64,000 nt of DNA from an archaeon. Its GTDB lineage: Archaea; Nanobdellota; Nanobdellia; Pacearchaeales; DTIR01. The notes beneath the pieces are model-generated. The model searched no databases. It was not told where the DNA came from and saw only the letters and a program-made list of their open reading frames with translations. The DNA is taken from the NCBI GenBank assembly GCA_043808285.1, contig JAZDFA010000012.1:67680-131679 (forward strand), in the 5' to 3' direction. The translations under genes and the position numbers were made by a program. This document shows, one piece after another, positions 1,961 to 63,485 of the stretch; the first letter of the stretch is position 1; every line of letters begins with the position of its first letter.

Positions 1961-2188
1961 TTATGTCAAGAACACTTGACAAAACCACATACTTTTAGTA
2001 TGTGGTCGTGTGTTCTTGAGCATCCTAACCAAGAAAAACTTGAAGGTTTTTCAGGGTCCCGAAAAGCTTTGCTTTTCGCGAAGTTGCACGCAAACCACAC
2101 CCCCGCAAAAAGCAAAGCTTTTTTGGGCATAAGAAATCTAGTAAGATTTCCTCTGTTTAGGGTGGGTAAAACTCAGCAACTTTTTGAT
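1961..2188 (+). repeat. modular hairpin repeat locus R1 (forward)
   Basis: TTATGTCAAGAACAC..GTGTTCTTGAGCATCCTAAC, then GAAAAAC/GTTTTTC and CGAAAAGC/GCTTTTCG hairpins. Then AAGTTGC-ACGCAAACC..two nested hairpins..GTAAAACTCAGCAACTTTTTGAT. Confidence 0.85.
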
Positions 2189-4379: not shown

Positions 4380-4450
4380 ATAAAAAATAAATTAAGAGCG
4401 TTTATAAAAGTTACCATTCATATTTTTTTAAATAAACTCTAAAAATAGGT

Positions 4451-4545
4451 CATAAAGTTGTTGAGTGCTACCTATCGATGTACAACTTCGCGAAAAACAG
4501 AAACTTTTCTCTGGGAGTTTTGAGAACACACGATTTTTATCAATT
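4451..4545 (-). repeat. modular hairpin repeat locus R2 (reverse, degenerate)
   Basis: AAAGTTGTTGAGTGCTA..CAACTTCGCGAAAAAC..CTTTTCTCTGGG..GAGAACACAC. Matches the reverse complement of blocks seen at 50204-50417. Confidence 0.55.
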
Positions 4546-4589
4546 GTTTTTGGCGTAAGATTTTTAAAGCAATCAAAACTTGATGACAA

Positions 4590-5258
4590 ATGATAAAGAA
4601 AAATGATTTTGTAAAGCTTGAATTCATTGGAAAAGTAGTTGAAACTGGAGAAGTATTTGACACAACTAATGAATCTGAAGCAAAGAAAGCAGGCATTTTC
4701 AACGAGAATGAAAAGAGCAAATTTAATCCCTTAAAAATTTGTGTTGGAATGGGAATGCTTGTATCTGGTTTTGACAAGGCATTAGAGGAAAAAGAGCTAA
4801 ACAAGGATTATGAGATAGAATTAAACCCACAAGAAGCATTTGGCAAAAGAGACAGCAAACTTGTAAGGACAATGTCTGTTTCTGCTTTTCGGCAAAGAGG
4901 AATAGACCCTATAACTGGAATGATGCTTTCATTGGATAATTTTTTGGTCAGGATTGCTTCAGTATCCTCTGGAAGAGCAATAGTTGATTTTAATAATCCA
5001 CTGTCTGGAAAACATATATTATACAAATTCAAGATATTAGAGAATATAACCGACATGAGCGAGAAGATATCAATACTCTGCAAGGTATTAGTAGGATTTG
5101 AAGGCAAGATCATAGAAGAGAAAGGCAAATATTCTTTGGAATTTGATTTTAAAATGCCTCCAAAGATAGAAGAAGAGTTAAAGAGAAAGATAAAAGAGAT
5201 ACTGAAGATAGAGATAGAGGTAATAGAAAGCAAGAAAGAAGAGCAAGCTAATAATTAA
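4590..5258 (+). CDS. FKBP-type peptidyl-prolyl cis-trans isomerase (archaeal long type with IF insert)
   Basis: 222 aa. VKLEFIGK..GEVFDTT..GFDKAL..VDFNNPLSGK closely follows the archaeal FKBP17/SlyD-like pattern. Confidence 0.8.
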   Translation: MIKKNDFVKLEFIGKVVETGEVFDTTNESEAKKAGIFNENEKSKFNPLKICVGMGMLVSGFDKALEEKELNKDYEIELNPQEAFGKRDSKLVRTMSVSAFRQRGIDPITGMMLSLDNFLVRIASVSSGRAIVDFNNPLSGKHILYKFKILENITDMSEKISILCKVLVGFEGKIIEEKGKYSLEFDFKMPPKIEEELKRKIKEILKIEIEVIESKKEEQANN

Positions 5259-9547: not shown

Positions 9548-10372
9548 TTAAACTCCCCCCTTAATTGAGAAACATTCTTCTTTAAGGCTGCAGCTCCTGC
9601 ATTTATGGGGGTTTTCGTTAATTGGGGGAATTTTACTTTCATTTATCTTTCTTATATTTTCAACTATCTCGACAACAGCGTCTTTGAGGGATTTTGTTAT
9701 ATCAATTTTTAACTGGTTGTCGGAGTATTCAACATAACCATACTCGACAGAAACATTGAATGTTTCTTCGATAAGCAATGCATATGATGCAAGCTGAATT
9801 ATATCAGATTCATAGGGTTGTGATGCATTGCCAGTTTTTATCTCGAATGGGACATATATCTCTCCCTTTTCCTGCTTGATTATTGAAACCCTGTCTATTC
9901 TGCCTGCAAGATTGAGTTTTGCAGATTTTACCCTCATTTCGGTTATATATTTTGGTTGAAGCTTTTCCCACAAATCTTCCTTGAATATCCCTTTTTGGAT
10001 AAGTGCATGAACGGCCATTACTCTTGGCTGAATTTCTCGGTTAAATGAGGATAAGGATTCTTCCCAAAAATTTTGGAGAGTTATCATAAATCTTAATGCC
10101 ATGTCTCCATGAGAGACTACTTTTTTTGTTATCTCGAAGAAAACTTTTTTGTATATCTCTTCTAAATCGGATATTGAAAAATTCTGGGAGAGTGATAATA
10201 TCAACTCTTTTTCTATATTGTTGAAATCGTCAAATATTTCATGCCTCATTTTTCCTCTTACCATCCGGGCATTAATTCTTTCCTTAGAACCCCTCGTTTT
10301 TTTGAGATAGCTCTTTCTTTTGCAATATAGATAATCTGTGATATCTCTTACATTAAGCGCTTGGCTTTCCAT
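9548..10372 (-). CDS. Cas4-like PD-(D/E)XK nuclease with 4Fe-4S Cys cluster (RecB-family exonuclease)
   Basis: 274 aa. N-terminal Cys (YLYCKRK), GRIDRV, EIKTG, QLASYAL, C-terminal CRSCSLKEEC (C-x2-C-x5-C). No cas1/cas2 or array nearby. Confidence 0.7.
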   Translation of the reverse strand: MESQALNVRDITDYLYCKRKSYLKKTRGSKERINARMVRGKMRHEIFDDFNNIEKELILSLSQNFSISDLEEIYKKVFFEITKKVVSHGDMALRFMITLQNFWEESLSSFNREIQPRVMAVHALIQKGIFKEDLWEKLQPKYITEMRVKSAKLNLAGRIDRVSIIKQEKGEIYVPFEIKTGNASQPYESDIIQLASYALLIEETFNVSVEYGYVEYSDNQLKIDITKSLKDAVVEIVENIRKINESKIPPINENPHKCRSCSLKEECFSIKGGV

Positions 10373-11636
10373 TCTTCTTTTTCCCCCTCTGCTGCATTCT
10401 TGATTTTCTTACAGAATAGTTTAGGGGATTTTTTATCATCCTGCATAATCCGTCTGGCTCGCATATAGCTATATCTTTGTATACTGGCTTGTCACAGTTT
10501 GGGGGGAGTATAGGTTTTTGCCTCTTAAACCATATCATCTGGGATTTTACATAGCCCTCTCTTAACTGCTTGTAATTTTTTTTGTTCCATTCATTCACAG
10601 CATTTTCTATCTTGTCATAATCCATTTGTATGCTCTTGAAAAAATTGAGAAGAATAAACAATGCCCTTTTTCTTCCATCCTGTTTTGTCCCCTGAAGTAT
10701 TTTTTGAACACATGGAGGATACATTGAGGGGGATAGATCTTTTATGTTAATCTCTGTTCTAAACTCTTTTCTTACTTCATTTTTTGGCTCTTGCTTTTTA
10801 ATCTCTTTTGCCGCATCTATTGCCTGCATTACCAATTCTTTTGCTTCGTTTTCATCTGGTTGTGGCAGAAAAGACTTTGGAAGCGCTATTTCTGGCTTTG
10901 CCCAACCTGGCTGGAAATTTTTTATTTGATCATTCTTGATTACTATGCTTGCAAGACCTGTTCTTTCATGAAGAGAATAAGGCATTCTAAATAAATGCCT
11001 TGGAGAAACAAGTATCAAATCAGGAGTAAGTTTTTTTACAGCCTCATCATCATAAATCCTTTTCCCCACTAATTCTGAACTGAGGTCTCTTATCCTTTCA
11101 GCAAGCCTCTTTTTTATTATGCTATGGAGATAATCTACAATCTGTCTTGGAAGAGATGGGAAGAGGTTTTTTGTCTGTAGACTTCCAATTTCTGTTGGAA
11201 ATGCTTTCCATGGGACTATTATATGGAAACCTGAGCCGCCCGAGAATTTTATTGCGAAGTTGGTTATACTATGGAATTTGAGAGCTTCTGCGATAAGTTC
11301 TGCTGTTATCTTGCCATATTCTATATATTTAGTATCTATATCAAGAAGAAGGTCCCAGCCAATCCTTAGATTATTGAATTGTTCTTCGCTCATTTCTGTC
11401 TTTATTTGCAGGGGGTCGTGCCATAATTCTTCAGAACAATGAAAGGAGGTTGCACCCCTTTCTGCAAGCGCAGCAACATCAGAATCATATTCAAGTGCAT
11501 CAGGCCTTTTGCCAAAACTCTCCACATATCTTGGGGATATCTCCCTATAGGCAGAGAAAGCAACAAGGGCTTTTTGCACATCTTTTCTTTTGTAATACTT
11601 ACCAGCAAGCTCAATGATCCTTTCTTCCTTAGTCAT
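10353..11636 (-). CDS. priS: DNA primase, PriS catalytic domain fused to PriL-type Fe-S C-terminal domain
   Basis: 427 aa. LLLDIDTKY (DxD), SGGSGFHIIV, RMPYSLHERTG. C-terminal YPPCVQKIL..GRKRALFILLNFF..PPNC..C..C resembles the PriL CTD. Confidence 0.75.
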   Translation of the reverse strand: MTKEERIIELAGKYYKRKDVQKALVAFSAYREISPRYVESFGKRPDALEYDSDVAALAERGATSFHCSEELWHDPLQIKTEMSEEQFNNLRIGWDLLLDIDTKYIEYGKITAELIAEALKFHSITNFAIKFSGGSGFHIIVPWKAFPTEIGSLQTKNLFPSLPRQIVDYLHSIIKKRLAERIRDLSSELVGKRIYDDEAVKKLTPDLILVSPRHLFRMPYSLHERTGLASIVIKNDQIKNFQPGWAKPEIALPKSFLPQPDENEAKELVMQAIDAAKEIKKQEPKNEVRKEFRTEINIKDLSPSMYPPCVQKILQGTKQDGRKRALFILLNFFKSIQMDYDKIENAVNEWNKKNYKQLREGYVKSQMIWFKRQKPILPPNCDKPVYKDIAICEPDGLCRMIKNPLNYSVRKSRMQQRGKKKNGKPSA

Positions 11637-11686: not shown

Positions 11687-12238
11687 ATGAATAAGCTGGG
11701 TATTTTTTTTGGAGTCCTTGCACTTTGCTTTGTGGTGCAAATTAGCAGCTGCAGCGGTGGAAATGTCGGATATGTAAACTTGACAATAATGCCTTCTCCC
11801 CCATACATCTCCTCTTTAGAGATTTTGCAGCAGGAAGATTTCAATTACCTTGAATGTGATGCACAAATAATGGGTAATAACCCTTCAGACTATAATACTA
11901 TATACACTTGGAATGCTGGGGGGGTGAAAGTTGGAGAAGGAGAAAGGGTGGAAGTAAGAGACAATTGGAAAGAGATTACATGCAAGGCAGAGGCTTATGA
12001 TTCAAATAATGGCAAGGACATAAAGGAAAAGACAATTATTATAGTAAGGCACTCTATTACTGGAAATGCTGTTAGCAAGGAGGGGGGCGCAAACAACCTG
12101 TTTTTGGGAGCTATTTTGTTTGTTTCAATTGCCCTATTTTTATTCGTGTCAAGAACACTTGGCAAAAATCAAATACTTGAAAACAAAGTTTTTCTCTGTT
12201 TAAAAGATGCGGTTTTTGCAAAATTTCTGACATCATAA
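11687..12238 (+). CDS. small secreted/lipoprotein-like protein with C-terminal TM helix
   Basis: 183 aa. Signal plus Cys (VVQISSCSGG). C-terminal helix LFLGAILFVSIALFLFV. The last ~30 codons and the stop are encoded by repeat R3. Confidence 0.4.
   Translation: MNKLGIFFGVLALCFVVQISSCSGGNVGYVNLTIMPSPPYISSLEILQQEDFNYLECDAQIMGNNPSDYNTIYTWNAGGVKVGEGERVEVRDNWKEITCKAEAYDSNNGKDIKEKTIIIVRHSITGNAVSKEGGANNLFLGAILFVSIALFLFVSRTLGKNQILENKVFLCLKDAVFAKFLTS
12147..12232. repeat. modular hairpin repeat locus R3 (chimeric)
   Basis: Starts TGTCAAGAACAC and ends AAATTTCTGACA (reverse complement of TGTCAGAAATTT). Internal GAAAAC/GTTTTC hairpin and CTCTGTTTAA block. Confidence 0.7.
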
Positions 12239-14426: not shown

Positions 14427-17400
14427 GTGAAAAATAGAAACGTAATCAAGATAAAGTTTAAGGAAATTATACTTAAAGAACCAGAAATTTTTAGCGAGAC
14501 AGTTTTTCAGATTGCTACATTAATTATCTCTATTTTTGCATTCTCTTTTTTAGTTGGGTCTATTTCAATTGCGGCGAGCCCAGTGGTTAGTGCACTAGAA
14601 TCTTCTGTATGTTGTGAGAAAACAAAAGACAAGAATCTTTTCTGCCAAAATTCTATTGCTGCAAATTGCGATGATACTTTAGGCCATTCACAGACATTAT
14701 GCTCTTCAACTGACTACTGCAAATTAGGCTGTTGTATAGACACAACAGAAGGAACATGCGGAGAGAACACACCTAAGAAGGTTTGCGATTTAAGGAATGG
14801 AACATGGGATTTAAGCGCAAGCTGCAATATTGCACAATGCCAAAAAGGGTGTTGTATCTCAGGAGATAAGGCATCATTAACTACATTAGTAAGATGCAAG
14901 AAATTGGCAAGCTTTTATGGTTTAGAGACAGACTATAGAAGTGAGATAATTTCTGAGGCTACCTGTGTTAATATTGCACAGGCAGAAGACAAGGGGGCGT
15001 GCTTAATTAATACTGGTTTAGAGACAACATGCAAATTGACAACAAAGGTTCAATGTAATGGTATAACACACAATGCAAGTGCTTTCAATAAGGAATTTTT
15101 ATGCTCTGCGAAGGAATTAGGAACACCTTGCACAAGACAGGCATCCACAGGATGCATTGAAGGAAAGGACGAGGTTTATTGGTTTGATTCCTGCGGGAAT
15201 ACAGAGAATATTTATGATTCTAACAAAGACCGAAGCTGGAATAATGGAAAGATTCTTGAAAAGAGCAAGTCATGTGATTTAATCAAGGGGAATACTAGGA
15301 ATCCTCTTTGCGGAAATTGCAAATATTCTGAAGGTAGCATTTGCGGGAAAGCAAGAACGGGGATTGAGCCAAAGCCAGCTTATGGAGATTATATTTGCAG
15401 AAATGTTGACTGCGAGGATACTTTTAATGGAAATGATTACAAGCACGGAGAATCATGGTGTGTTTATGATGCGACAGTGGGGCAAGGAAAAGATTTAGTG
15501 GGAAGCAGGCATTGGAGACATCTTTGTGTAATGGGTGAAGAACAGGTTGAGCCGTGCGAGGATTATAGACAGTCCATATGCGTTGAAAATAAAGTAAAGA
15601 CAGATGAGGGAGATTTTAATGAGGCAGTATGTAAAATAAATGACTGGCGCTCATGCATTGATTATAATAACAAAGCAAATCCTCAGAGTCTATGCAGCAA
15701 TAACAAGGATTGCTATCCTTTGGCTGCATGGAAAATGAATTTATGTATGCCTCAAGTGCCTTCTGGATTTGAGATGAGAGACAGTGACAGTGCAAGCACG
15801 ATATGCGGCATGGCAACACAACAATGCACTGTTGTTTACACCAAGAAATTAAGTGGGTGGGAGTGCACTTTGAATTGCGAGTGCAAAGAACAATCGTGGG
15901 CAAACCAGATGAATAAATGGTGCACTTCTTTAGGTGATTGCGGTGGCAAATATAATCTTGCAGGGTCATATGAGAAAGGATATCAGATGTCTGGAGGACA
16001 AGCACCAAATGAGGACAGCAGTGGTTCAGATAAGGGTGCTGGCAGCGGCGGAGGAATGATGTCTTACTTACCTATGGCTGGAACTGCACTAGGCGCATAT
16101 ATGATGTTAAAAGGAGGTGCTGTTGTTGCAGCCGGAACTGTATTAGTTGCTGGAACAACAGTTACAAGCGGAGTAGTTGCTGTAACACAGGCAAGTGGGG
16201 TAGTTGTTTCTTTTACTGCGACTGCTGCTTCTCCTGTCACAATTACTGCGAGCGGAGCTGTACAGGGAGGAGTTAGTGCAAGTGGTGCAGTTAGTGCCGG
16301 CGGTGGAGGTGCGACTACTGGAAGCGGAGGTGCAGCTGCAGGAATAACTGGGTGGTTGAACGGCATGACAACAATGGGTCCTTTACTTGCTATAGCTGCA
16401 GTTGCTATAGCTGGATTTTTTATAGGAAAAATGATGGGATTAGATGATACTGCATCAGCAATAGCTGCAGGTGTCGGAGTTGCAACAGCAGTAACTTTGC
16501 AGGTATTGCATCAGATGGGCGTTCAAATGTTTACAAATTTGGCTTTTACAGGGCTATTTATTTGGGGGATGGTTGCAGCAATTATTATGATAATAATTTT
16601 CAAATTTATTTTAGGAGTAGGCAAGACAAAAAAAGAGGTAATCAGTTTCACATGTCTGCCATGGCAGCCGCCATCAGGTGGGGCAAACTGTGAAAAATGC
16701 AATACGCTTCCTATTGGTGGGGATATGAAACAGTGCAGCAAATACAGATGTGAGAGTTTAGGAGCAGCATGTTCATTGTTAAATGAGGGAACTGGAAATG
16801 AGACATGTGCATGGCTGAATAAGGACGATATAAATGCACCTACATTGAAGCCATGGAAAGATGTTCTTACTTCTGGGCATAAATACAGAGATGATGCTTG
16901 TAAGGAAGCAGGATGCTGGACTATATTAAGAGATATTGCAACAGACGGCTGCATTCAGCCATATACCTCGATAGCATTCGGAATTGAGACAAATGAACCC
17001 TCACAATGCAAGATTGATTATGCCTCTAAAGAGAAATTTGATGATATGGAATTTTATTTTGGAGAAAATCTTTATCTTTATAATCACAGCGTGCAGATGA
17101 GCATGCCTGCTCCAGAGCATATATATGAAATAAGCAAAATATTTGCTGAAGAGAATCCTGAAGAGGGAATAGTTCCTGTGCGAAATGGCGGGAACTACAC
17201 ATTATATCTAAGATGCAGGGATGCCAATGGAAATGCAAATGCCAAAGAATTTTCAGTCAGTTTTTGCGTCGACTCTGGCCCCGATTTAAACGCTCCTTTG
17301 ATAATGAGAACGAGCATTGAAAATGGTGCGCCAATAGGATACGGCACAAACTCAGTTCCAATTGATATATCCTTGAACGAGCCATCACAATGCAAATGGA

Positions 17401-18191
17401 GTAATTTAGACCAAGATTATGGGGATATGACTCAGAATTTTACATGCTCTGATTCAATTGAGCAGATGGAAGGAGACATGACTTACAAGTGCTCTGCTAA
17501 TTTGCTCGGAGTAAAGGATGCTACGACAAATATTTTCTATTTCAGATGCAAAGACCAGCCATGGCTTGCGGGAAAGAATGAATCTGGCAGGAATGATAAT
17601 AAGGAAAGTTATATTTTTAAGCTTGAAGGCACTAATCCCTTAAAGATAATTGGCAAGGGTCCTGAAGAGACAATATATTCTGGTGGTGAGAACACAGAAA
17701 TAATTCTTACAGTTGATACCTCTGAGGGTTATTCATATGGGGATTCTGTATGTTATTTTAGCAATACTGGTTATGAGAATATGCTGCAGTTTTTCACAAC
17801 AGGAGAGGCTCATCACGAGCAAACGCTTAATTTACCTTTAGGAGACCACACTTTTTACCTGTCATGCATGGATTTAGCAGGGAATGTTGACAAGACTACT
17901 ATAAGCTTTACTGCTGAGCTTGATAAGACACCCCCAGAAGTAATAAAAGCATATCAAGATGGAGGCATGTTAAAGATAATCACTGATGAGGAGAGTGATT
18001 GCAGATATGGAATAAAAGATTGCAATTTTGATTTTTTCTCTGCAACAGAAATGCCAGTTGCAGATTTAGGAGAGTATAATGCTGAATGGAGAACCGATGC
18101 CACCTATTATATAAAATGCATGGATAAGTTTGGCAACATTCCTTCAAATTCGGAATGCACTATAAAATTAAATGCATATAATGTAGAATAG
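14427..18191 (+). CDS. giant Cys-rich membrane protein, copy 1: N-terminal anchor, Cys-rich ectodomain, Gly/Ala/Val/Thr-rich hydrophobic core, four beta-sandwich-like C-terminal modules
   Basis: 1254 aa, GTG start. TM helix IATLIISIFAFSFLVG. Dozens of Cys (CCEKTKDK.., CQKGCC..). Central region GGMMSYLPMAG..FKFILGVGK. C-terminal modules with recurring EPSQCK..F/YYxxC(K/R)D..GN. Confidence 0.6.
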   Translation: MKNRNVIKIKFKEIILKEPEIFSETVFQIATLIISIFAFSFLVGSISIAASPVVSALESSVCCEKTKDKNLFCQNSIAANCDDTLGHSQTLCSSTDYCKLGCCIDTTEGTCGENTPKKVCDLRNGTWDLSASCNIAQCQKGCCISGDKASLTTLVRCKKLASFYGLETDYRSEIISEATCVNIAQAEDKGACLINTGLETTCKLTTKVQCNGITHNASAFNKEFLCSAKELGTPCTRQASTGCIEGKDEVYWFDSCGNTENIYDSNKDRSWNNGKILEKSKSCDLIKGNTRNPLCGNCKYSEGSICGKARTGIEPKPAYGDYICRNVDCEDTFNGNDYKHGESWCVYDATVGQGKDLVGSRHWRHLCVMGEEQVEPCEDYRQSICVENKVKTDEGDFNEAVCKINDWRSCIDYNNKANPQSLCSNNKDCYPLAAWKMNLCMPQVPSGFEMRDSDSASTICGMATQQCTVVYTKKLSGWECTLNCECKEQSWANQMNKWCTSLGDCGGKYNLAGSYEKGYQMSGGQAPNEDSSGSDKGAGSGGGMMSYLPMAGTALGAYMMLKGGAVVAAGTVLVAGTTVTSGVVAVTQASGVVVSFTATAASPVTITASGAVQGGVSASGAVSAGGGGATTGSGGAAAGITGWLNGMTTMGPLLAIAAVAIAGFFIGKMMGLDDTASAIAAGVGVATAVTLQVLHQMGVQMFTNLAFTGLFIWGMVAAIIMIIIFKFILGVGKTKKEVISFTCLPWQPPSGGANCEKCNTLPIGGDMKQCSKYRCESLGAACSLLNEGTGNETCAWLNKDDINAPTLKPWKDVLTSGHKYRDDACKEAGCWTILRDIATDGCIQPYTSIAFGIETNEPSQCKIDYASKEKFDDMEFYFGENLYLYNHSVQMSMPAPEHIYEISKIFAEENPEEGIVPVRNGGNYTLYLRCRDANGNANAKEFSVSFCVDSGPDLNAPLIMRTSIENGAPIGYGTNSVPIDISLNEPSQCKWSNLDQDYGDMTQNFTCSDSIEQMEGDMTYKCSANLLGVKDATTNIFYFRCKDQPWLAGKNESGRNDNKESYIFKLEGTNPLKIIGKGPEETIYSGGENTEIILTVDTSEGYSYGDSVCYFSNTGYENMLQFFTTGEAHHEQTLNLPLGDHTFYLSCMDLAGNVDKTTISFTAELDKTPPEVIKAYQDGGMLKIITDEESDCRYGIKDCNFDFFSATEMPVADLGEYNAEWRTDATYYIKCMDKFGNIPSNSECTIKLNAYNVE

Positions 18192-19088: not shown

Positions 19089-22000
19089 ATGAATAACAAA
19101 AAAACGGCAAAAGAAAAGCCAGTATTACAGGCGTTCTTCTTAATGGCTAACATGATTATTTCGATATTTGCATTTTCTTTTTTGATTGCTGCTGTATCAG
19201 TTATATCAACACCTGTTGCTGCTGCAGCTACATCAACTGAATGCTGCGAGAAGGTAAAGGACAAGGATTTATTCTGCCAGAATACATTATCAACAAGCTG
19301 CGATACAAAATTTGCTCATGCTCCAACTTCATGCGACTCAACTTCATTTTGCAGATTAGGGTGCTGTTATGACGGCAAGGAAGGAACTTGCGCTGAAAGC
19401 ACCCCAAGAAAGGTTTGTGATTTAAGGGGTGGGACATGGGATTTGAGCGCAAGCTGCAATATCGCACAATGCCAAAAGGGGTGCTGTGTTCTTGGAGACC
19501 AGGCATCATTGACAACATTAGTAAGATGCAAGAAATTGGCAAGCTTTTATGGTTTAGAGACAGATTACCGGTCTGCTATTGTTTCTGAGCAGGCATGCGT
19601 TGATATTGCACAAGCAGAGGATAAAGGAGCATGCGTTATCACTGCAGGCGGAGTTGAAACAACTTGCAAGCTAACAACAAGAGTAGAATGCAAGAGCATG
19701 ACACACAATGAAACTGCTTTCAATAAAGGATTTTTATGTTCGGCAGAGAAGTTAGGAACACCTTGCACAAGACAGGCATCCACAGGATGCATTGAAGGAA
19801 AGGACGAGGTTTATTGGTTTGATTCCTGCGGGAATACTGAAAATATTTATGATGCTAACAAGGACAGGAGCTGGAACAATGGAAAGATATTAGACAAGGA
19901 AAAGTCATGCGATCCTATACAAGATAATGCAAAGGATGCAAATTGCGGCAATTGCGATTATTATATGGGAAGCATGTGCGGAAAGGCAAGGACAGGAGTT
20001 GAGCCAAGACCTGCTGAGGGGGATTACATTTGCAGGGATTTGAATTGTTATAATACTTACAATGGAAAAGATTACAAGCACGGAGAATCATGGTGTGTTT
20101 TTGATGGTGCTGTAGGATTAGGCAGAGATGCACCAGGCAGCAGGCATTGGAGACATCTTTGTGTGATGGGTGAGGAGAAAGTAGAGCCTTGTGATGATTA
20201 CAGGCAGGGGATTTGTGTTCAGGATAGTGTGGATATAGAAGGTCAGGGCAAATACACAGAGGCAATGTGCAGGGCAAATGGCTGGAAGATGTGCTTTGAT
20301 TATAATTCTAAATCTAATGCAGAAAAACAATGCAATGATAATAATGACTGCATGTGGATGCAAGCATGGAAATTAAAATTATGCGTGCCAAATTTCCCTC
20401 CAGGATTTAATATAAAGGCTGGAGGAGACCTTGCAGGTGGAGCAACTACTTTCTGTAGCATGGGTTCTTCATCATGTTCTGTAGCTTATCAGAAAACTTT
20501 AACGAAAGGTTGGCAGTGTGTTGGCAATTGCGAATGCAAGGAACAAGCATGGGTAAATACTATGGACAAATTGTGCACTTCTATGGGAGATTGTGGTGGA
20601 AAAGCTAATATTGCTGGAGCTTATACTAAAGATGGATATGAAATAAGCGGAACAGAGAATGTTCCAGATAAAAATGTAAGCAACAAAGATGATGGTTTTG
20701 GAGGTTTTGGTGGTTTATTGATGTCTGGGGGGATAGCTATAGGTGCTATTTGGATATTTAATAACATGAAGCTTATAACTACTTCTCAAGCTACTGCATT
20801 AAAAGCAGCTGAAGTTATTGGAGGCAAGACTGCTAGGATGACTAGCCTCAAAGGGGCGGAAGCAGGATATTCCCCAGGTAAGGGATTAACATTAAATCAG
20901 TGGTTGAGTATTAATGCTAAACAGGGAACCGGGTTTGCCAATATAGCTGTAAATGTCGCAGGAGCATATATGGTTTCTATGCTTGTTAATGGATTATTTG
21001 GTTTGAAAGGAGAAGCCGCAAACATGGTAACAATGGCAGGTGTAACTACTTCATTAGCAACTTCAGTTTATGGAAATATGATGGCCTCAAAAGTAGCTGC
21101 AGGAACTGCGCAGCCTTTCTTAGGTCTGGGTGGGGGAGCTTGGTTTGCCCCTCTTATTTGGGCTGCAGTAGTAATGTTAGTAGTAGCTTTAATTATGAAA
21201 ATGATGAAGATAGGTGCGACAAGAACGGAGAAAGTAACATTCACATGTTTGCCATGGCAGCCTCCAGTTGGCGGGGCTGATTGCCAGAAATGCAATAAGG
21301 AACCAATTGGTGGGGAGATGAAGCCATGCACTAAATATAGATGTGATAGTCTTGGGCAGGGTTGTTCATTATTAAATGAAGGTACTGGAAAAGAGACTTG
21401 CACTTGGATTAATAAGGATGACAGCACTGCGCCGGTAATAAAACCATTAAAGTCTGTGCTTACAAAAGACCATTCTTACAAAGAAATTAAGCCTTGCCCG
21501 CCAGGACCTGGTTGCTTCAAGATAGAAAAAGAGGGTTCTAAAGACGGCTGCATAAAATCATTTACCCCATTGCAATTTGGAATAGAAGCTAATGAGCCTG
21601 CACAATGCAAGCTAGACACAAATCACACTGGGAAGTTTGATGACATGCAGTTTTATTTTGGTGATAATCTTTACTTATATAATCATACTATGATGATGAG
21701 CCTGCCTTCACCTGCTTCTATAAATGCGTTAAGCAATGAAACAACAAGCCCCACATTAAAGAATGATGGGAAATATACAATGTATATAAGATGCAGGGAC
21801 GGAAATGGGAATTGGAACTTGGGGGAAATGGCAATGCAGTTCTGCGTTGACCCTGGCCCAGACACGACACCTCCAATGATAATGAGAACAAGCATAGAGA
21901 ACGGAGCACCAATAAGTTACAATGCAAAGAATGTTCCTTTGGATGTTTATCTGAATGAGCCATCAGCGTGCAAATGGAGCAGAACAGATCAGGATTATAA

Positions 22001-22784
22001 CAATATGAATAATACATTTATATGTGCTTCAAGTGTTGAGCAGATAGAAGGAGACATGACTTACAAGTGCAGCACAATATTAAGCAGCGTTAATGATAAG
22101 GTAACAAATACCTTCTATTTCAGATGCAAAGACCAACCATGGCTTGCAGGAGTTAATGAGAGTGACAGGAATATTAACAAAGAGAGTTATGTTTTCAAGC
22201 TTGAAGGCACTATTCCATTGAATATCACTAAGGTAGAACCAAATGGAACAGTTAAAGGAGGAGCAGAGCCAATCTCTGTGAAATTAACTGCAGAGACTGC
22301 AAATGGATATTCAAGCGGGGATGCAAAATGTTCTTTTGCAACAAATGGTTATGATGGGGCGATGGTAGAATTTTTTGATACTGGTAGTTACAAACATGAA
22401 CAGACTCTTGATTTGTATGCTGGAGACTACACTTTCTATGTGATGTGTAGAGATGATGCAGGAAATACTGACCAGAATATGACTAAATTCAAAGTAGAAT
22501 TGGATAAAACACCTCCCATAGCTGTAAGAGCTTATCAGGATGGGGGAATGCTAAAGATAGTAACTGATGAAGATTCAGAATGCAAGTATGGAATAAAGGA
22601 CTGCAACTTTGACTTTTTATCTGCTACAGACATGCCATTTGAAAATTCAACAGAGCATACTGCAGAATGGAGAACAGACATAACTTATTATATCAAGTGC
22701 AAAGACCAATATGGGAATATGCCAGTACCCTCTGCTTGTTCGATACAAGTAGATGCATATGATATACAGACGAATAGTGAGTAA
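19089..22784 (+). CDS. giant Cys-rich membrane protein, copy 2 (paralog of 14427..18191)
   Basis: 1231 aa. Collinear with copy 1 in both ectodomain parts (CCEKVKDKDLFCQN.., FTCLPWQPPVGGADCQKCN.., four C-terminal modules). The central hydrophobic region is unrelated in sequence. Confidence 0.6.
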   Translation: MNNKKTAKEKPVLQAFFLMANMIISIFAFSFLIAAVSVISTPVAAAATSTECCEKVKDKDLFCQNTLSTSCDTKFAHAPTSCDSTSFCRLGCCYDGKEGTCAESTPRKVCDLRGGTWDLSASCNIAQCQKGCCVLGDQASLTTLVRCKKLASFYGLETDYRSAIVSEQACVDIAQAEDKGACVITAGGVETTCKLTTRVECKSMTHNETAFNKGFLCSAEKLGTPCTRQASTGCIEGKDEVYWFDSCGNTENIYDANKDRSWNNGKILDKEKSCDPIQDNAKDANCGNCDYYMGSMCGKARTGVEPRPAEGDYICRDLNCYNTYNGKDYKHGESWCVFDGAVGLGRDAPGSRHWRHLCVMGEEKVEPCDDYRQGICVQDSVDIEGQGKYTEAMCRANGWKMCFDYNSKSNAEKQCNDNNDCMWMQAWKLKLCVPNFPPGFNIKAGGDLAGGATTFCSMGSSSCSVAYQKTLTKGWQCVGNCECKEQAWVNTMDKLCTSMGDCGGKANIAGAYTKDGYEISGTENVPDKNVSNKDDGFGGFGGLLMSGGIAIGAIWIFNNMKLITTSQATALKAAEVIGGKTARMTSLKGAEAGYSPGKGLTLNQWLSINAKQGTGFANIAVNVAGAYMVSMLVNGLFGLKGEAANMVTMAGVTTSLATSVYGNMMASKVAAGTAQPFLGLGGGAWFAPLIWAAVVMLVVALIMKMMKIGATRTEKVTFTCLPWQPPVGGADCQKCNKEPIGGEMKPCTKYRCDSLGQGCSLLNEGTGKETCTWINKDDSTAPVIKPLKSVLTKDHSYKEIKPCPPGPGCFKIEKEGSKDGCIKSFTPLQFGIEANEPAQCKLDTNHTGKFDDMQFYFGDNLYLYNHTMMMSLPSPASINALSNETTSPTLKNDGKYTMYIRCRDGNGNWNLGEMAMQFCVDPGPDTTPPMIMRTSIENGAPISYNAKNVPLDVYLNEPSACKWSRTDQDYNNMNNTFICASSVEQIEGDMTYKCSTILSSVNDKVTNTFYFRCKDQPWLAGVNESDRNINKESYVFKLEGTIPLNITKVEPNGTVKGGAEPISVKLTAETANGYSSGDAKCSFATNGYDGAMVEFFDTGSYKHEQTLDLYAGDYTFYVMCRDDAGNTDQNMTKFKVELDKTPPIAVRAYQDGGMLKIVTDEDSECKYGIKDCNFDFLSATDMPFENSTEHTAEWRTDITYYIKCKDQYGNMPVPSACSIQVDAYDIQTNSE

Positions 22785-24929: not shown

Positions 24930-25966
24930 ATCTTCGTCCAGTTTATTTTTGATATATTCCCAATAGGATTCTTTTCATAAGGGCATTTATATATCTCTCC
25001 AAAAATATCTATATAACTGCTGCTAAAACCCGCAGAACAATATTTTTTTATTGTACTCAATTCACCTATTATCACTTTTTTATTGCTTTCTTTTTTTAGT
25101 CTCTTTAGAATAGCTGTTGTCTTGTTAATCTCTGGCAGAATTTTGTAAAGGCCCCTTTTGTAAGGTACTACTAATGAAAATTTAATCATTGAGATATTAT
25201 CCAACTTCTCAAGTTCTTTTAGGATATCACTCAATTCTGCATAATTAGAATTATATTTTGTGACGACCACATTTATTTTAAGAGGGATTAAAAGTTCATC
25301 AAAAAATTTTATGTTGTCTAATATCTCTTTTTTTGAATAGCATATGCCTAATTTTCTAAGAGTACTCTTTTTTAATGAATGAACTGAAAGTTGTATTATC
25401 CTAATATGTTTCTTTATTTTCTTTAATCTGCTTTTTATATCATTATGTCAGAAATGCTTTTGCGAAAACCACATGCTTTAGCATGTGGATGAGCATTTCT
25501 GATCATCCTAAAGTTGCACGCAAACCACACCCTTTAGGGTGTGGTAAAACTCAGCAACTTTTTGATTTAGAAACCCGTTAGTATTTATTTCTATTGAGAT
25601 ATTCTTTTTTGAAGCTAATTCTATGAAATCATCAAATCTAGGATTTAGTAATGGTTCTCCCCCAGTTATGATTATTTCAAGTGTAGAACTTGTTAATTTA
25701 TTTAGAATATTCTTAAAACTTGATAAAGACAAATTTCTAGTTATATTATTATTCCGGTTATAACAAAACACACAGTGAAGATTACATTTGTTTGTTATCT
25801 CTAAGAACACCCTAATGGGTCCATCAGCTTCTTTTCTTTTTCTAAAAGAAACGAAATTTGATTTCAGAAAACTAATTACATCTCTTTCTTTGAATTCTTT
25901 TAAGTCTTCTATCCTAAAGATTTGACCGTTGCGAGAAATTAGAAAGTATATCTCTCTATTGTTCAT
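24848..25966 (-). pseudogene. radical SAM enzyme with twitch/SPASM-like C-terminus, interrupted by a ~123-nt hairpin repeat
   Basis: N-half (ORF 25508..25984): CNLHCVFC, GGEPLL, EINTNGFL. C-half (open from 25447 to 24848): DIKSRLKKIKKHIRIIQLSVHSL..CSAGFSSSYIDIFGEIYKCPY. Both halves share one codon phase. The only three in-frame stops (25510-08, 25480-78, 25450-48) lie inside repeat R4. Likely start is MNNREIY at 25966. Confidence 0.7.
25443..25566 (+). repeat. modular hairpin repeat locus R4, inserted inside radical SAM coding sequence
   Basis: TTATGTCAGAAATGC..ACCACATGC-TTT-AGCATGTGG..GCATTTCTGATCATCCTAA-AGTTGCACGCAAACCACACCC-TTTA-GGGTGTGGTAAAACTCAGCAACTTTTTGAT. Confidence 0.85.
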
Positions 25967-25967
25967 C

Positions 25968-26096
25968 TTAGTCCCATGCATCACTGGAAGGCATCATTAG
26001 ACATCCTTCATCTGTTCTTCTGTGTTTGATGATCTGTTCTAAGAATACTTTCGTATTTTCTTTATCTTGTCTTTTCTGTTGATTTCTTTTTTTCAT
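25968..26096 (-). CDS. unannotated small ORF (42 aa), candidate precursor peptide for the adjacent radical SAM enzyme
   Basis: MKKRNQQKRQDKENTKVFLEQIIKHRRTDEGCLMMPSSDAWD. Stop TAA is one nt before the MNNREIY start of the radical SAM gene. AAAGATTTAAATAAAT promoter-like box about 30 nt upstream. Confidence 0.4.
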   Translation of the reverse strand: MKKRNQQKRQDKENTKVFLEQIIKHRRTDEGCLMMPSSDAWD

Positions 26097-27586: not shown

Positions 27587-27656
27587 TAATTTAGGTCTAT
27601 CCTCTTCCTTTTATTTCTTTCTAAACCATTTTTGCAAACCCTTACATTTGCATTTT

Positions 27657-28164
27657 TTATGTCAAGAACACTTGACAAAAACCACATACCATACTTTAGT
27701 ATGCGGTAGCGTGTTCCTGAGCACAAGAAAATCTTGTTTGATTTTCTTATGCCGGAAATTCCTAAGGAAGAATTTCCTTGCATCCTAACAGGGGGAATCT
27801 TTTGATGTCAGAAATGTGGTTCAAACCGCACCCCGCAAAAAGCTTTGCTTTTCGGGGCATAGAAAACCGCTAGAGGTTTTCTCTGCTTTAGGGTGCATTT
27901 CTGATCATCCTAACCTCGAAAACCTTTTGGTTTTCGGGGCCCTGAAAATCCAGTAGGATTTTCTTGGAATTCCAAGCAAACCGCACCTCCGCGAAAACAT
28001 CTTGTTTTCGGGGCATAGGAAATTAGTAAATTTCCTCTGTTTAAGGTGCGGTAAAACTCAAGGAATTTTTTGATTCCCAATGTCCCGAAAAGCTAAGCTT
28101 TTCGCGAAGTTGCACGCAAACTTCCACCTTTTAAGGTGGAAGTAACACACAGCAACTTTTTGAT
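27657..28164 (+). repeat. modular hairpin repeat locus R5, largest composite array (508 nt)
   Basis: At least four full modules plus eight simple GAAAANC/GNTTTTC hairpins. Ends with CAGCAACTTTTTGAT. Track ORFs here (27576..27788, 27586..27783) are translations of the repeat. Confidence 0.9.
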
Positions 28165-28185
28165 CTTTTTGTTGTCACCATAAAG

Positions 28186-28195
28186 TTTATAAAAA
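28186..28195 (+). promoter_or_regulatory. TATA box for small ORF / radical SAM operon 2
   Basis: TTTATAAAAA centred 25 nt upstream of the ATG at 28215 (leaderless spacing). Confidence 0.45.
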
Positions 28196-28214
28196 ATGAT
28201 TCATAATCAAAACT

Positions 28215-32728: not shown

Positions 32729-32868
32729 AAAAACCTCTGTTTTACTGGGGGTTTTCACGAAAAGCAAAGCTTTTCGAGTCCCCGAAAAACAAGAAGGTTT
32801 TTCTTGGTTAGGATGCAAGGAAATTCGAAAGAATTTCCGGCACAGAAAATCCTAGAGGATTTTCTTGT
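32729..32868 (-). repeat. modular hairpin repeat locus R6 (reverse, lacks the TGTCA terminal block)
   Basis: CGAAAAGC/GCTTTTCG, GAAAAAC/GTTTTTC, GGTTAGGATGC (reverse complement of GCATCCTAACC), GGAAATTC/GAATTTCC, AGAAAATCC/GGATTTTCT. Confidence 0.8.
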
Positions 32869-32885
32869 GATTCAAAATTAAAAAA

Positions 32886-38320: not shown

Positions 38321-38356
38321 TTTTGTTTTGTTTTTTTCTTTTTTTCTTTTTTTTTA
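38321..38356 (+). terminator. oligo-T terminator region after S-layer gene
   Basis: TTTTGTTTTGTTTTTTTCTTTTTTTCTTTTTTTTT immediately after the stop. Archaeal termination typically uses T runs. Confidence 0.55.
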
Positions 38357-38373
38357 ATTGACTGCTGATAGGC

Positions 38374-38524
38374 ATCAAAAAATTCCTGGAGGTTTGCTTG
38401 GAATTTTAGGATGCTCAAGAACACAACCACACACTAAACAGAGAAAATCCTAACTGGATTTTCAATGTCCTAAAAATCAAGAGATTTTTTCGACTGTGTG
38501 GTTTTTGTCAAGTGTTCTTGACAT
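38374..38524 (-). repeat. modular hairpin repeat locus R8 (reverse)
   Basis: Reverse complement reads ATGTCAAGAACAC-TTGACAAAAACCACACAG-[two hairpins separated by CAT]-CTGTTTAGTGTGTGG-TTGTGTTCTTGAGCATCCTAA-AATTCCAAGCAAACC..AGGAATTTTTTGAT. Confidence 0.85.
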
Positions 38525-38544
38525 GCAAAACATTTTTTGGTAAC

Positions 38545-40926: not shown

Positions 40927-40957
40927 GAAAATGTATTTAAATATGTTTTTTGTTTTG

Positions 40958-41093
40958 TGTCAAGAACATTTGATTAAACTCGTGTGTTCTTGATCATCCT
41001 AACGGAGAGAATCTTTTGATTCTCAATGTCCCGAAAAGCAGTTGCTTTTCGCGAAGTTGCCGTTTGGCAATAGCACTAGAGCAACTTTTTGAT
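40958..41093 (+). repeat. modular hairpin repeat locus R9 (forward)
   Basis: TGTCAAGAACA..GTGTGTTCTTGATCATCCTAAC-GGAGAGAATC/GATTCTCAATG-TCCCGAAAAGC/GCTTTTCGCG-AAGTTGC..GAGCAACTTTTTGAT. Confidence 0.85.
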
Positions 41094-49799: not shown

Positions 49800-49916
49800 T
49801 ATTTTTTTTAGGCTATTATCTTTATAAAACTTATCAAGTTTTTATTCAGGGTATTAAACATACTAGTTGCCTATTGGGGGTAAAACCTTTATAATCTTAA
49901 TTCCCTCTTTAATTCA

Positions 49917-50201
49917 ATGGAATCACAAAAAGGCATTGCAAAAAAGAAGATAAAACCTAGCGAGAGAGAGAAAAAGAGGTATATAGTATTTAGTGGTAAT
50001 TTTAGAGAAGTCGTTGATGTATTATCCATTTTGGGAAGAGATTTTAAGATTATTGCATCAAGGGAAAAAAGAACAATGGCAAGGGTATTTCTTAAAGACT
50101 TAACCAGGGCAAGAGTTTTAGCAGACTCCAAAGGAGTGGGAGTGGTAGGATTAAGCGGAACAATAAAGCGGGCAAAACAGAAGTTTTTTAACAAATTATA
50201 A
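49917..50201 (+). CDS. RNase P protein component 2 (Pop5/Rnp2-like), short
   Basis: 94 aa. REKKRYIVF and SGTIKRAK motifs. Conserved position upstream of psmA in the archaeal exosome superoperon. Confidence 0.5.
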   Translation: MESQKGIAKKKIKPSEREKKRYIVFSGNFREVVDVLSILGRDFKIIASREKRTMARVFLKDLTRARVLADSKGVGVVGLSGTIKRAKQKFFNKL

Positions 50202-50203
50202 GT

Positions 50204-50417
50204 TATCAAAAAGTTGCTGAGTGCTAAACAAATTGCAACTTCGCGAAAAGCAAATGCTTTTCGGGACATTGAGAATCTTTAAGATTCTCTCTGTTAGGAT
50301 GCAAGGAAATTCTGCTTTGAGAATTTCCTGCACAGAAAATCCAGTAAGATTTTCTTGTGCTCAAGAACACGCAATTACACACTTAAGTGTGTATTTTTGT
50401 AAAGTGTTCTTGACATA
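50204..50417 (-). repeat. modular hairpin repeat locus R10 (reverse, near-complete composite)
   Basis: ATCAAAAAGTTGCTGAG..GCAACTT-CGCGAAAAGC/GCTTTTCGGGA-..GAGAATC/GATTCTC..GTTAGGATG-CAAGGAAATTC/GAATTTCCTG-CACAGAAAATC/GATTTTCTTGTG-CTCAAGAACAC..GTGTTCTTGACATAA. Confidence 0.9.
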
Positions 50418-50492
50418 AGGAAAGGTTTAAAAATGACTCCAAATTAATTAGATTAGCAAAATAAGAGTGGAGATTATTTTTTCTCTAAACAA

Positions 50493-54680: not shown

Positions 54681-54846
54681 ATGTCAGAAATGTTGTTCAA
54701 ACCGCGCCATTTAGTGTGCATTTCTGATCACTTGGAAATCTTATGATTTCCTGTGCAGGAAATTTTTTTGAAGAATTTCCTTGCATCCAGAAAACCTACG
54801 CAAACATCCCAACTTTAATGTGCGATAGACATAAGGTTTTCTTGAT
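54681..54846 (+). repeat. modular hairpin repeat locus R11 (forward)
   Basis: ATGTCAGAAATG-TTGTTCAAACCGCGCC..GTGTGCATTTCTGATCA-CTTGGAAATC/GATTTCCTGTG-CAGGAAATT/GAATTTCCTTGCATCC-AGAAAACC..GGTTTTCT. Confidence 0.85.
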
Positions 54847-56129: not shown

Positions 56130-56305
56130 CATTGAGAATCACAAGATTCTCTCTGTTACAGAGGAAACATCTCTGTTTCTTATGCATAGAAAAACGAAGT
56201 TTTTCTCTGGGATGCAAGGAAATTCAAAAGAATTTCAGGCACAGAAAATCCAAATGATTTTCTTGTGCTCAAGAACACACGAATTTGGTCAAGTGTTCTT
56301 GACAC
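56130..56305 (-). repeat. modular hairpin repeat locus R12 (reverse)
   Basis: GAGAATC/GATTCTC, ..AGAAAAAC/GTTTTTCT.., GGGATGCAAGGAAATTC/GAATTTCAGG, CACAGAAAATC/GATTTTCTTGTG, CTCAAGAACAC..GTGTTCTTGACAC. Confidence 0.85.
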
Positions 56306-56376
56306 AGAAGTAATTATTTTTTCTACTTCATCGATAAAAGGTAAGATTTAAAAACGTTCTAATTTTAAGGATAAAC

Positions 56377-57288: not shown

Positions 57289-57379
57289 CCTAAAAATCAG
57301 ATGATTTTTAGTCTGCTCGGAAACAGAGGAAATCTTAATTGATTTCCTATGCCCCGAAAAGCAGAAGCTTTTCGCGGTG
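57289..57379 (-). repeat. modular hairpin repeat locus R13 (isolated inner two-hairpin unit, reverse)
   Basis: Reverse complement reads CCGCGAAAAGC/GCTTTTCGGGG-CAT-AGGAAATC/GATTTCCT-CTGTTT, identical in layout to the interior of full modules. Confidence 0.75.
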
Positions 57380-57426
57380 GAACCGAGATAAAAAATAGAA
57401 AACAAAATAAATAAACCATTTCCGAC

Positions 57427-63371: not shown

Positions 63372-63485
63372 TTATGTCAGAAATGTGGTTCAAACCGCAC
63401 CCCGCAAAAAACTTTGTTTTTTGGGGCATAGGAAATCAAAGATTTCCTCTGTTTAGTGTGTGGTAAAACTCAGCAACTTTTTGAT
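63372..63485 (+). repeat. modular hairpin repeat locus R14 (chimeric module)
   Basis: TTATGTCAGAAATG-TGGTTCAAACCGCACC-[CCGCAAAAAAC/GTTTTTTGGGG]-CAT-[AGGAAATC/GATTTCCT]-CTGTTTAGTGTGTGGTAAAACTCAGCAACTTTTTGAT. Confidence 0.85.

Follow-up and report, generated by a model that had tools for sequence, protein, structure and literature searches.

A 64-kb stretch of archaeal chromosomal DNA with ~36% G+C (contig JAZDFA010000012.1; this whole stretch is called the window here) carries at 2081-2188 a module with an outer stem, an inner stem and two apical hairpins, and the question raised by this locus is what kind of element the module is and at which level its pairing is kept. A sequence-only reading of the window had listed copies of the module whose stems differ while staying complementary, and had taken them as a sign of selection on structure rather than of the neutral decay of a mobile element. 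Here, we found that the four-stem module is real, and that it represents one version of a hairpin repeat that is modular and dispersed. The repeat forms 13 arrays that take up ~2.3 kb of the window, with ~1 copy per 5 kb. Its anatomy was read from these 13 arrays and from ~90 related loci. The comparison set consisted of Woesearchaeota/'Nanoarchaeota' metagenome-assembled genomes (MAGs) and of groundwater or sediment metagenome contigs, all from genomes other than that of the window; syntenic genes of the window and its closest relatives share ~68-71% nucleotide identity.

All stems listed earlier are present at their coordinates, and the sequence of 2081-2188 is exactly as it had been described. 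Folding recovers the outer stem, the inner stem and the two apical hairpins in 2081-2188, 27968-28074, 27806-27907 and 38414-38524 (minus strand). Folded as RNA or DNA on either strand, 2081-2188 has z-scores of -3.0 to -3.7 (-3.0 to -3.5 as single-strand DNA), and 0 of 200 shuffles fold as well; the RNA folds of the other cited copies have z-scores of -4.4 to -6.3, and the set including 2081-2188 spans -3.3 to -6.3. The 3' motif GTAAAACTCA-N5-6-TTTTTGAT occurs 4 times compared to 0 expected. While this part of the proposed layout stands, the four copies do not share a single layout, as they split into two kinds of module, which we call S and T. The copies at 2081-2188 and 27968-28074 are T modules (CAAAC, GGTAAAACTCA, TTTTTGAT), and those at 27805-27914 and 38407-38526 (minus strand) are S modules, which start with ATGT and have a 5' linker of the type T(T/G)G..AAAAC, almost no 3' linker and the tail (A/T)CATCCTAA. 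Since S and T are different kinds, AAGTTGC/GCAACTT and CAAGAACAC/GTGTTCTTG are not variants of one stem. Several of the parts that had been described as unpaired, conserved linkers are indeed unpaired and nearly invariant, but some of them are paired, such as ATGT with A(G)CAT in S.

The S module opens with ATGT and the outer 5' arm; a 5' linker with AAAAC at its end leads to the inner hairpin, whose loop is TTTA or TTCA, and after 0-4 nt come the outer 3' arm and AGCATCC. The T module opens with an AAA-rich outer 5' arm, after which come (A/C)A(A/C)CAAAC, the inner hairpin with its TTTA(A/G) loop, GGTAAAACTCA, the outer 3' arm and TTTTGAT. Common to both modules are an outer stem of variable sequence, an internal loop that is conserved, and an inner hairpin at the apex whose loop reads TTTA(G/A). 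The polarity of S and T is identical, with the TTTA loops and the AAAC|C linkers on one strand, and the two modules are not mutual inverted copies. The basic element is S abutting T, which is ~115-125 nt long and is the commonest form in other genomes. In an unfitted alignment, RNAalifold extends the outer stem of S to ATGT/A(G)CAT, where L127 shows a compensatory change, and the outer stem of T can be extended by inspection to ATC.../...GAT. The element would then have the feet of two abutting hairpins as its termini.

The additional stems are cassettes. The four-stem form has a twin cassette (hairpin 1, GGGGCAT, hairpin 2, CTCTG) inside the apical loop, directly 5' of TTTAG, and the host of this nested cassette is either T (2081-2188 and 27968-28074) or S (27805-27914 and, on the minus strand, 38407-38526). 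A short T at 25511-25566 has the same outer and inner stems as 2081-2188 without the twin cassette. In the focal T (2081-2188, plus strand), the outer stem is formed by 2081-2087/2176-2182 and the inner stem by 2095-2102/2160-2166, with the 5' linker ACGCAAA, the 3' linker TAAAACTCA and the tail TTTTTGAT; the T covariance model matches it with 43.9 bits, the insert being placed in the loop. The nested twin cassette (2104-2155, plus strand) comprises hairpin 1 (2107-2113/2117-2123), the linker GGGCAT and hairpin 2 (2133-2139/2144-2150), followed by CTCTG, and its pairs were counted in alignment A7. The same array opens on the plus strand with an S at 1963-2029 (73.9 bits with the S covariance model), which has the outer stem CAAGAACAC/GTGTTCTTG, the inner hairpin CCACATAC-TTTTA-GTATGTGG and the tail AGCATCCTAAC. 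Between this S and the focal T lies a further twin cassette (2030-2080, plus strand; inverted-repeat pair I12, alignment A7), whose orientation is opposite to that of the nested one. In L142, L144/L153, L116 and L149, the same position is taken by nested twin cassettes that are unrelated in sequence, and in L158 by an inverted cassette.

Simple cassettes (types CGAAAAGC, GGAAAT(C/T), AGAAAATCC and GAGAATC) are placed between S and T with fixed junctions, and cassettes were also found after GCA motifs and, in 5 of the 6 lineages examined, just 5' of the TTTAG of the apical loop. Hairpins are trailed by (N)GCA motifs (GAGCA, GTGCA, TTGCA, GGGCA). The order of an array is S, cassette C, GTGC(A/C), cassette B, TTGCATCC(TAAC), cassette D, AATGTCC, cassette A, CG and T, which is complete in 50203-50418 and partial in six other arrays; equivalent junctions (GAGCAC...TGTGCA...TGCATCC) are found in L003, L125, L149 and other loci. 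In L165, a solo hairpin (CTCCAGC-TTTTA-AGCTGGAG, ~840-870 in the minus-strand reading) lies downstream of the rpS10 gene and is identical to the inner hairpin of an S that is ~550-600 nt away; as this hairpin stands alone, inner hairpins also exist as free units.

The pairing of these modules is kept while the stem sequences change, as had been claimed from the few copies first compared. Among 76 distinct copies of T (model R1, alignment A4), 91.5% of the cells are paired and 14 of the 17 pairs are changed on both sides (225 cells), and the covariation score is 0.50 compared to no more than 0.11 when the partners are slid; 0 of 500 shuffles scored as high. Among 62 distinct copies of S (model R2, alignment A6), 97.1% of the cells are paired, 16 of the 17 pairs are changed on both sides, and the score is 0.60 compared to no more than 0.10. 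For the twin cassette (alignment A7; 12 distinct copies from the window, L158 and L166), 95.3% of the cells are paired and 7 of the 16 pairs are changed on both sides, with 0 one-sided changes among 192 cells. The R1 and R2 alignments were fitted to their models, which favours pairing; in unfitted MAFFT alignments, RNAalifold recovered both stems of S and the inner stem of T, with 11 and 7 compensated pairs, respectively. The sequence-only reading had itself considered that a few subfamilies, each copied as a palindromic unit, might account for the pairing. The outer stem occurs in at least 10 variants and the inner stem in at least 15, which a few subfamilies copied as units cannot explain. 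In addition, CAAAC is nearly invariant though it was part of no search pattern.

A comparison of G:U with C:A had been proposed as a way to identify the functional strand, and no such strand emerged from it, as G.T, A.C and other mismatches are equally rare. Among ~950 paired cells each, S has 15 G.T, 12 A.C and 16 other mismatches, and T has 18 G.T, 21 A.C and 14 others. That wobble pairs are no better tolerated than other mismatches on either strand argues against selection on one RNA strand, and the pattern fits a pairing that is read as DNA or a strand-symmetric constraint.

The repeat also behaves as dispersed, unstable DNA that is prone to insertion. A radical SAM/SPASM gene (24930-25984, minus strand) is split by a minimal S+T of 122 nt at 25445-25566 (plus strand; S 62.8 bits, T 82.3 bits), whose single-strand DNA fold has a z-score of -7.6. 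The two halves of the gene are in the same frame and both otherwise open, which suggests a recent insertion at 25445-25566. When the element was removed in silico, the gene gave one continuous Radical_SAM match (residues 56-196; 82.8 bits compared to 64.3 bits) and a SPASM match of 19.2 bits, which is below the cut-off of 21.5; the homologue of the split gene in L179 is uninterrupted. The tRNA-Ala(CGC) gene at 2219-2292 and the array at 1963-2188 are absent from the syntenic spacer of L149 (984-1017), where the flanking genes are 33 nt apart, while one L149 array is absent from the window and a degenerate T remnant is shared by the window (4447-4552) and the syntenic L149 site. Similarly, the array at 50203-50418 is absent at the syntenic site in L143. 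The spacer between rpoK and eno is occupied in both the window and L143, which carries T+S in the opposite orientation and with a different composition, and the spacer downstream of the ribosomal protein S2 gene is occupied in both with differing orientation and composition.

Alleles that lie between 200-nt flanks of 100% identity differ by 54-110 nt: they are 197 nt in L011/L177 compared to 87 nt in L111, and 118 nt in L175 compared to 64 nt in L073. The short allele of L073 is a deletion between the loops of two inner hairpins, which makes it the same kind of chimera as that at 63374-63485. Distant arrays of the window share sub-array segments of 40-67 nt with 91-95% identity, which indicates recent copying or conversion of parts and not of whole arrays. 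Taken together, these results show that kept structure and dispersed, unstable DNA coexist, and the contrast that had been drawn between structure and a mobile element therefore fails.

S+T is carried by 19 loci from 9 Woesearchaeota/Nanoarchaeota MAGs and by 70 metagenome contigs. The archaeal matches listed score 35-93 bits (50-93 bits for canonical full modules), 91 bacterial loci gave only two marginal model matches (27.8 and 27.7 bits), and the viral contigs searched gave no match. The repeat was thus found only in Woesearchaeota-type (DPANN) archaea.

We propose that S and T make up a mosaic hairpin repeat that is non-autonomous and specific to this lineage, that its pairing is under a constraint at the DNA level, and that side effects as a terminator are possible; we give this reading a probability of roughly 0.55. 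The pairing would be read as DNA, in a single-stranded or extruded hairpin, by a structure-specific activity acting in trans, which would copy or recombine the element and recognise both its stems and its conserved unpaired bases. The TTTA(G) loops may be preferred docking sites, and elements would nest in this way. Read on either strand, each hairpin has a 5' arm rich in A and a 3' arm rich in T, and for this reason the arrays are probably also bidirectional terminators or 3'-end protectors, which would be a by-product and not the reason for their conservation. A bolder version, which we consider possible rather than probable, is that the repeat is an archaeal counterpart of the REPIN/RAYT system, i.e., a long-lived intragenomic replicator selected for its structure, which would nest in itself by preferring its own apical TTTA(G) loops for insertion and would depend on a dedicated enzyme for single-stranded DNA. 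The ultra-compact DPANN genomes may also have co-opted it as a bidirectional terminator or insulator throughout the genome.

For this counterpart of REPIN/RAYT, a highly conserved stand-alone IS200-type TnpA is one candidate enzyme, but the link is not supported. A local tblastn search with IS200-type sequences gave two genes that adjoin elements, in L165 (203-694) and L116 (427-876), and both were confirmed as Y1_Tnp, at 87 and 93 bits, respectively. The TnpA homologues, of which there are more than 120 cluster representatives from DPANN-type metagenomes, have identities of 75-99%; most of them lie on very short contigs, and their sources are named as Nanoarchaeota or Pacearchaeota. In L181-L192, the gene belongs to a conventional insertion sequence (IS) with its own end hairpins, which have GCTTGC loops; the left end is CCACAGC-TTG-CTGTGGGG and the right end is CCCCATAGC-TTG-CTATGGGG followed by TTCAC. 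The left-end hairpin of this IS followed by TAAAGC vaguely resembles the inner hairpin of T followed by TAAAAC, which is a tentative lead.

Several observations weigh against a mobile repeat constrained at the DNA level. No mobilising enzyme was found, no transposase is encoded in the window, and the IS200-type TnpA was rejected as the mobiliser since it has its own, different ends and S and T lie elsewhere on the L181-L192 contigs and do not flank it. When the flanks of 59 elements were compared to all loci, only array-length alleles and no empty site were found, and thus no pair of an empty and a filled site with identical flanks that would fix the exact ends, the target and any duplication. 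The allele differences resemble gene conversion or recombination more than clean transposition. The preference at the flanks is weak, with TTTA after the T end in 9 of 88 cases compared to a background of 1.3%, and this TTTA could be abutting TAA stop codons. Lastly, the lack of tolerance for G.T is indirect evidence for a constraint at the DNA level. As to the flanks themselves, the left one has TTnnTT in ~80-90% of the copies, which may belong to the element, and the right one varies, with T at 50-66% in positions +1 to +3. An arrangement of the type S...ORF...T, with an open reading frame (ORF) between the modules, was not found in 0.51 Mb of related DNA.

The gene context bears on whether the arrays are instead primarily host cis-elements (bidirectional terminators, insulators or protectors of mRNA 3' ends), so that function keeps the pairing and dispersal is secondary, which we consider unlikely. 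In the related loci, the neighbouring gene pairs are co-directional with the element antisense in 22 cases and sense in 17, convergent in 13 and divergent in 4, and the occupancy of spacers is 14% for co-directional, 20% for convergent and 4% for divergent pairs. T ends often touch or overlap the stop codon of a gene that reads into them; for ~33 of 88 T ends, such a codon is found in the range of -59 to +60 nt, and the TGA inside CCTTGAG is the stop codon for about a dozen genes. The outer stem of T lies between A4-6 and T5-7, which places a run of T5-7 behind the stem on one strand and of T4-6 on the opposite one, and most metagenomic copies adjoin a 3' end. With runs of A and T bordering the T stem on both strands, many copies could plausibly be terminators, and the occupation of the rpoK/eno and S2-downstream spacers in both the window and L143 despite different orientation also fits a host function. 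This cannot be the whole explanation, however. Archaeal termination needs only a T tract, and terminators need no invariant CAAAC, GGTAAAACTCA and AGCATCC kept across genera. In the window, a manual map placed six arrays antisense to co-directional genes or inside a gene, two sense, four divergent and none convergent; 4 of the 13 arrays are thus in divergent promoter regions and one is inside a gene. Moreover, the arrays split the conserved rpoK-eno-rpS2 cluster, and G:U is tolerated no more than A:C.

It is less likely still that the pairing is kept by mechanism alone, through intrastrand template switching or mismatch correction in extruded hairpins, which copies one arm from the other without any selection, so that any palindromic repeat would drift and yet keep perfect complementarity. 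Such a mechanism would agree with the scarcity of one-sided intermediates (0 of 192 cells for the twin cassette, and few for S and T), with the about equal frequency of G.T, A.C and other mismatches, and with the frequent recombination between hairpins, but it leaves unexplained both the fixed order of the modules and why conservation is highest in the unpaired loops and linkers when genomes with a gene identity of only ~68% are compared. In addition, decaying copies with broken stems (4447-4552, 12140-12215 and 54790-54846) show that homogenisation is not automatic. The idea that S+T is a multicopy structured non-coding RNA gene or a protein-bound cis-regulatory RNA draws on a classic pattern of functional RNA, namely variable stems with conserved unpaired bases, and on the strong covariation and fold z-scores down to -7.7. 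We regard it as very improbable. With the Rfam gathering thresholds, only two tRNAs match in the whole window, and for 27600-28200 with E up to 5 the best sub-threshold matches have 16-24 bits compared to gathering scores of 45-195; no TATA box was found at a fixed distance upstream of S. The orientation relative to neighbouring genes is unbiased (22 compared to 17), there is no preference for G:U on either strand, and the density of ~1 copy per 5 kb, the truncations, the chimeras and the disruption of a gene also speak against such an RNA.

Other candidates were also tried and rejected. An orientation bias of 6 antisense compared to 2 sense arrays in the window was not borne out in the wider set. 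Intron-like behaviour was considered, and long open frames on both sides were found in only 3 distinct elements (four rows, as L130 = L178); among the elements with such frames, the split gene was checked in the window case alone, so that splicing is no general feature of the repeat. A small ORF from the conserved ATG of S is broken by 1-nt indels in the linker (judged by eye). For a hammerhead (CUGAUGA), a C/D box or a K-turn, the required helices or G.A pairs are absent, as judged informally by eye.

The remaining arrays of the window show how freely the modules are combined. The largest array, with ~11 hairpins (27659-28164, plus strand), lies between the divergent metG and a radical SAM gene and contains an S (27659-27726), two simple hairpins, the long S at 27805-27914, a twin cassette, the long T at 27968-28074, one hairpin and a short T (28098-28164). 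The array at 50203-50418 (minus strand) has the complete order, with S, cassettes C and B, the CATCCTAAC junction, cassettes D and A and a variant T, while 32740-32876 (minus strand; pair I1, family D15) has four hairpin cassettes around the CATCCTAAC junction without the S and T ends. At 38372-38526 (minus strand), downstream of the S-layer gene, the long S (38407-38526) is followed by a T without its inner hairpin (38372-38410). The array at 40955-41093 (plus strand) has an S without its inner hairpin, two cassettes and a variant T, and that at 54681-54846 (plus strand), between rpoK and the enolase gene, has an S, two cassettes and a degenerate T. A further array (56130-56310, minus strand) lies between the enolase gene and that of ribosomal protein S2, and a free-standing twin cassette with one hairpin (57290-57385, minus strand) lies downstream of the latter. 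The chimera at 63374-63485 (plus strand; family D17) joins the 5' half of S, a twin cassette and the 3' half of T and has a low T score of 31 bits; it is the fifth long copy, and its outer arms CAGAAATG and GCAACTT are not complementary. Several arrays are degenerate, among them 4447-4552 (minus strand; a weak match to the T model), between the divergent aIF5A and FKBP genes, and a long-S remnant at 12140-12215 (plus strand; repeat families D12 and D19), which overlaps the 3' end of the ORF at 11687-12238.

The genes of the window encode a CDC48-type ATPase, a PACE-CTERM S-layer protein, MetRS, SerRS, a class II tRNA synthetase of the Asp/Lys/Asn type, PCNA, a fused primase, proteasome alpha, RpoK, enolase, the ribosomal proteins S2 and L11, aIF5A and SepF, and there are 2 tRNA genes. 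A 427-aa ORF with small and large primase subunit domains looks like a fused PriS-PriL and overlaps a Cas4/PD-(D/E)XK nuclease gene, both on the minus strand (10353-11636 and 9548-10372, respectively). A pair of paralogous genes of ~1250 aa each (14427-18191 and 19089-22784, plus strand) shares blocks of 66-82% nucleotide identity, which are the repeat families D1, D2, D9-D11 and D13; they probably encode surface proteins. A 40-nt pyrimidine tract, TTGTTTTGTTTTTTTCTTTTTTTCTTTTTTTT, lies at 38323-38362 between the stop codon of the S-layer gene and the array. Mechanically called ORFs run, start or end in arrays at 41016 (TTG), 54846 (TTG), 38512 (GTG), 49889-50269, 4472-4804 and 11687-12238, and the gene boundaries there probably differ from the mechanical calls.

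These arrays matter for annotation, as they mislead gene callers (several ORF starts and stops of the window lie inside arrays), supply stop codons to neighbouring genes and split at least one gene. A share of ~3-4% is notable for a streamlined DPANN genome, and the differences between strains with identical flanks could serve as strain markers. With its two-tier hairpins, conserved unpaired cores and recursive nesting, the repeat offers a clean system for asking by what means DNA hairpins stay paired and what enzyme reads the pairing. In the literature searched, no description of the S+T family was found, and structural repeats resembling REP, BIME and REPIN are treated as a bacterial feature.

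How the repeat relates to known systems was then considered. Integron attC sites keep their fold and a few unpaired bases although the stems vary in sequence, and the sites are recombined as single-stranded hairpins; here, in contrast, there is no integrase, there are no cassette genes and no attI/intI platform lies beside the arrays. The BOX element of Streptococcus pneumoniae (boxA-boxB(n)-boxC) has fixed, distinct end modules and a variable number of internal ones, is intergenic and has extensive secondary structure. The mosaic build of BIME and BOX is also found here, with distinct modules in a fixed order, variable internal units and conserved junctions, while the nesting in apical loops and the strong covariation of stems across genera differ from BOX. 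The repeat is not known to resemble the BOX sequence, no BOX sequence having been aligned.

The MITEs bounded by terminal inverted repeats (Correia, ERIC and the cMITEs of PMC11602168) are likewise short, non-autonomous, intergenic and dense, and a census of MITEs lists one Woesearchaea genome with 105 cMITEs per Mb (PMC11602168). A classical MITE of this type was rejected, since the tests for a terminal inverted repeat and for a target-site duplication both failed: the element begins with ATGTCAAGAA... and ends with ...CTTTTTGAT, the only likeness is that of ATGTCAAGAA to ATCAAAAAG, the ends match in 7 of 8 positions only when a 2-nt gap is introduced (ATCAAGAA/ATCAAAAA), and no matching direct repeat was found in the flanks. 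The ends of IS200/IS605 elements and the PATEs, which are derivatives of these elements without genes (PMC3119063), share with S and T the subterminal hairpins of the same polarity, the lack of target-site duplication and terminal inverted repeats, the occurrence in archaea and a trans-acting Y1 transposase in the same genomes. They differ in that the ends of the co-resident IS are unrelated to S and T, that no full-length IS bounded by S and T was found, and that no fixed target tetra- or pentanucleotide was shown.

The REP and BIME repeats of enterobacteria and pseudomonads and the REPINs, which RAYT (TnpA-REP) mobilises, are also high-copy, extragenic palindromic units in mosaics with conserved junction motifs, and they too lack target-site duplications and a clear terminal inverted repeat. 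In bacterial REPINs, compensatory changes keep the hairpins of a mobile element (PMC3116915), as they do here. REP and REPIN elements are thought to act as single-stranded DNA hairpins (PMC3116915, PMC2817692), and secondary roles in termination and mRNA stability have been proposed for REP-type repeats (PMC2817692, PMC3733652). On the other hand, the host here is archaeal (DPANN), the hairpins are larger and two-tiered with nested cassettes, and the 5' GTAG or CGTC tag of REP is absent. A REPIN is made of two REPs inverted in one hairpin, whereas S and T are direct repeats that each fold on themselves, and no RAYT-like gene flanked by S and T repeats was found in the related loci examined. 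Taken together, these comparisons place the repeat closest in kind to the bacterial REP, BIME and REPIN repeats, with BOX also near to it in architecture.

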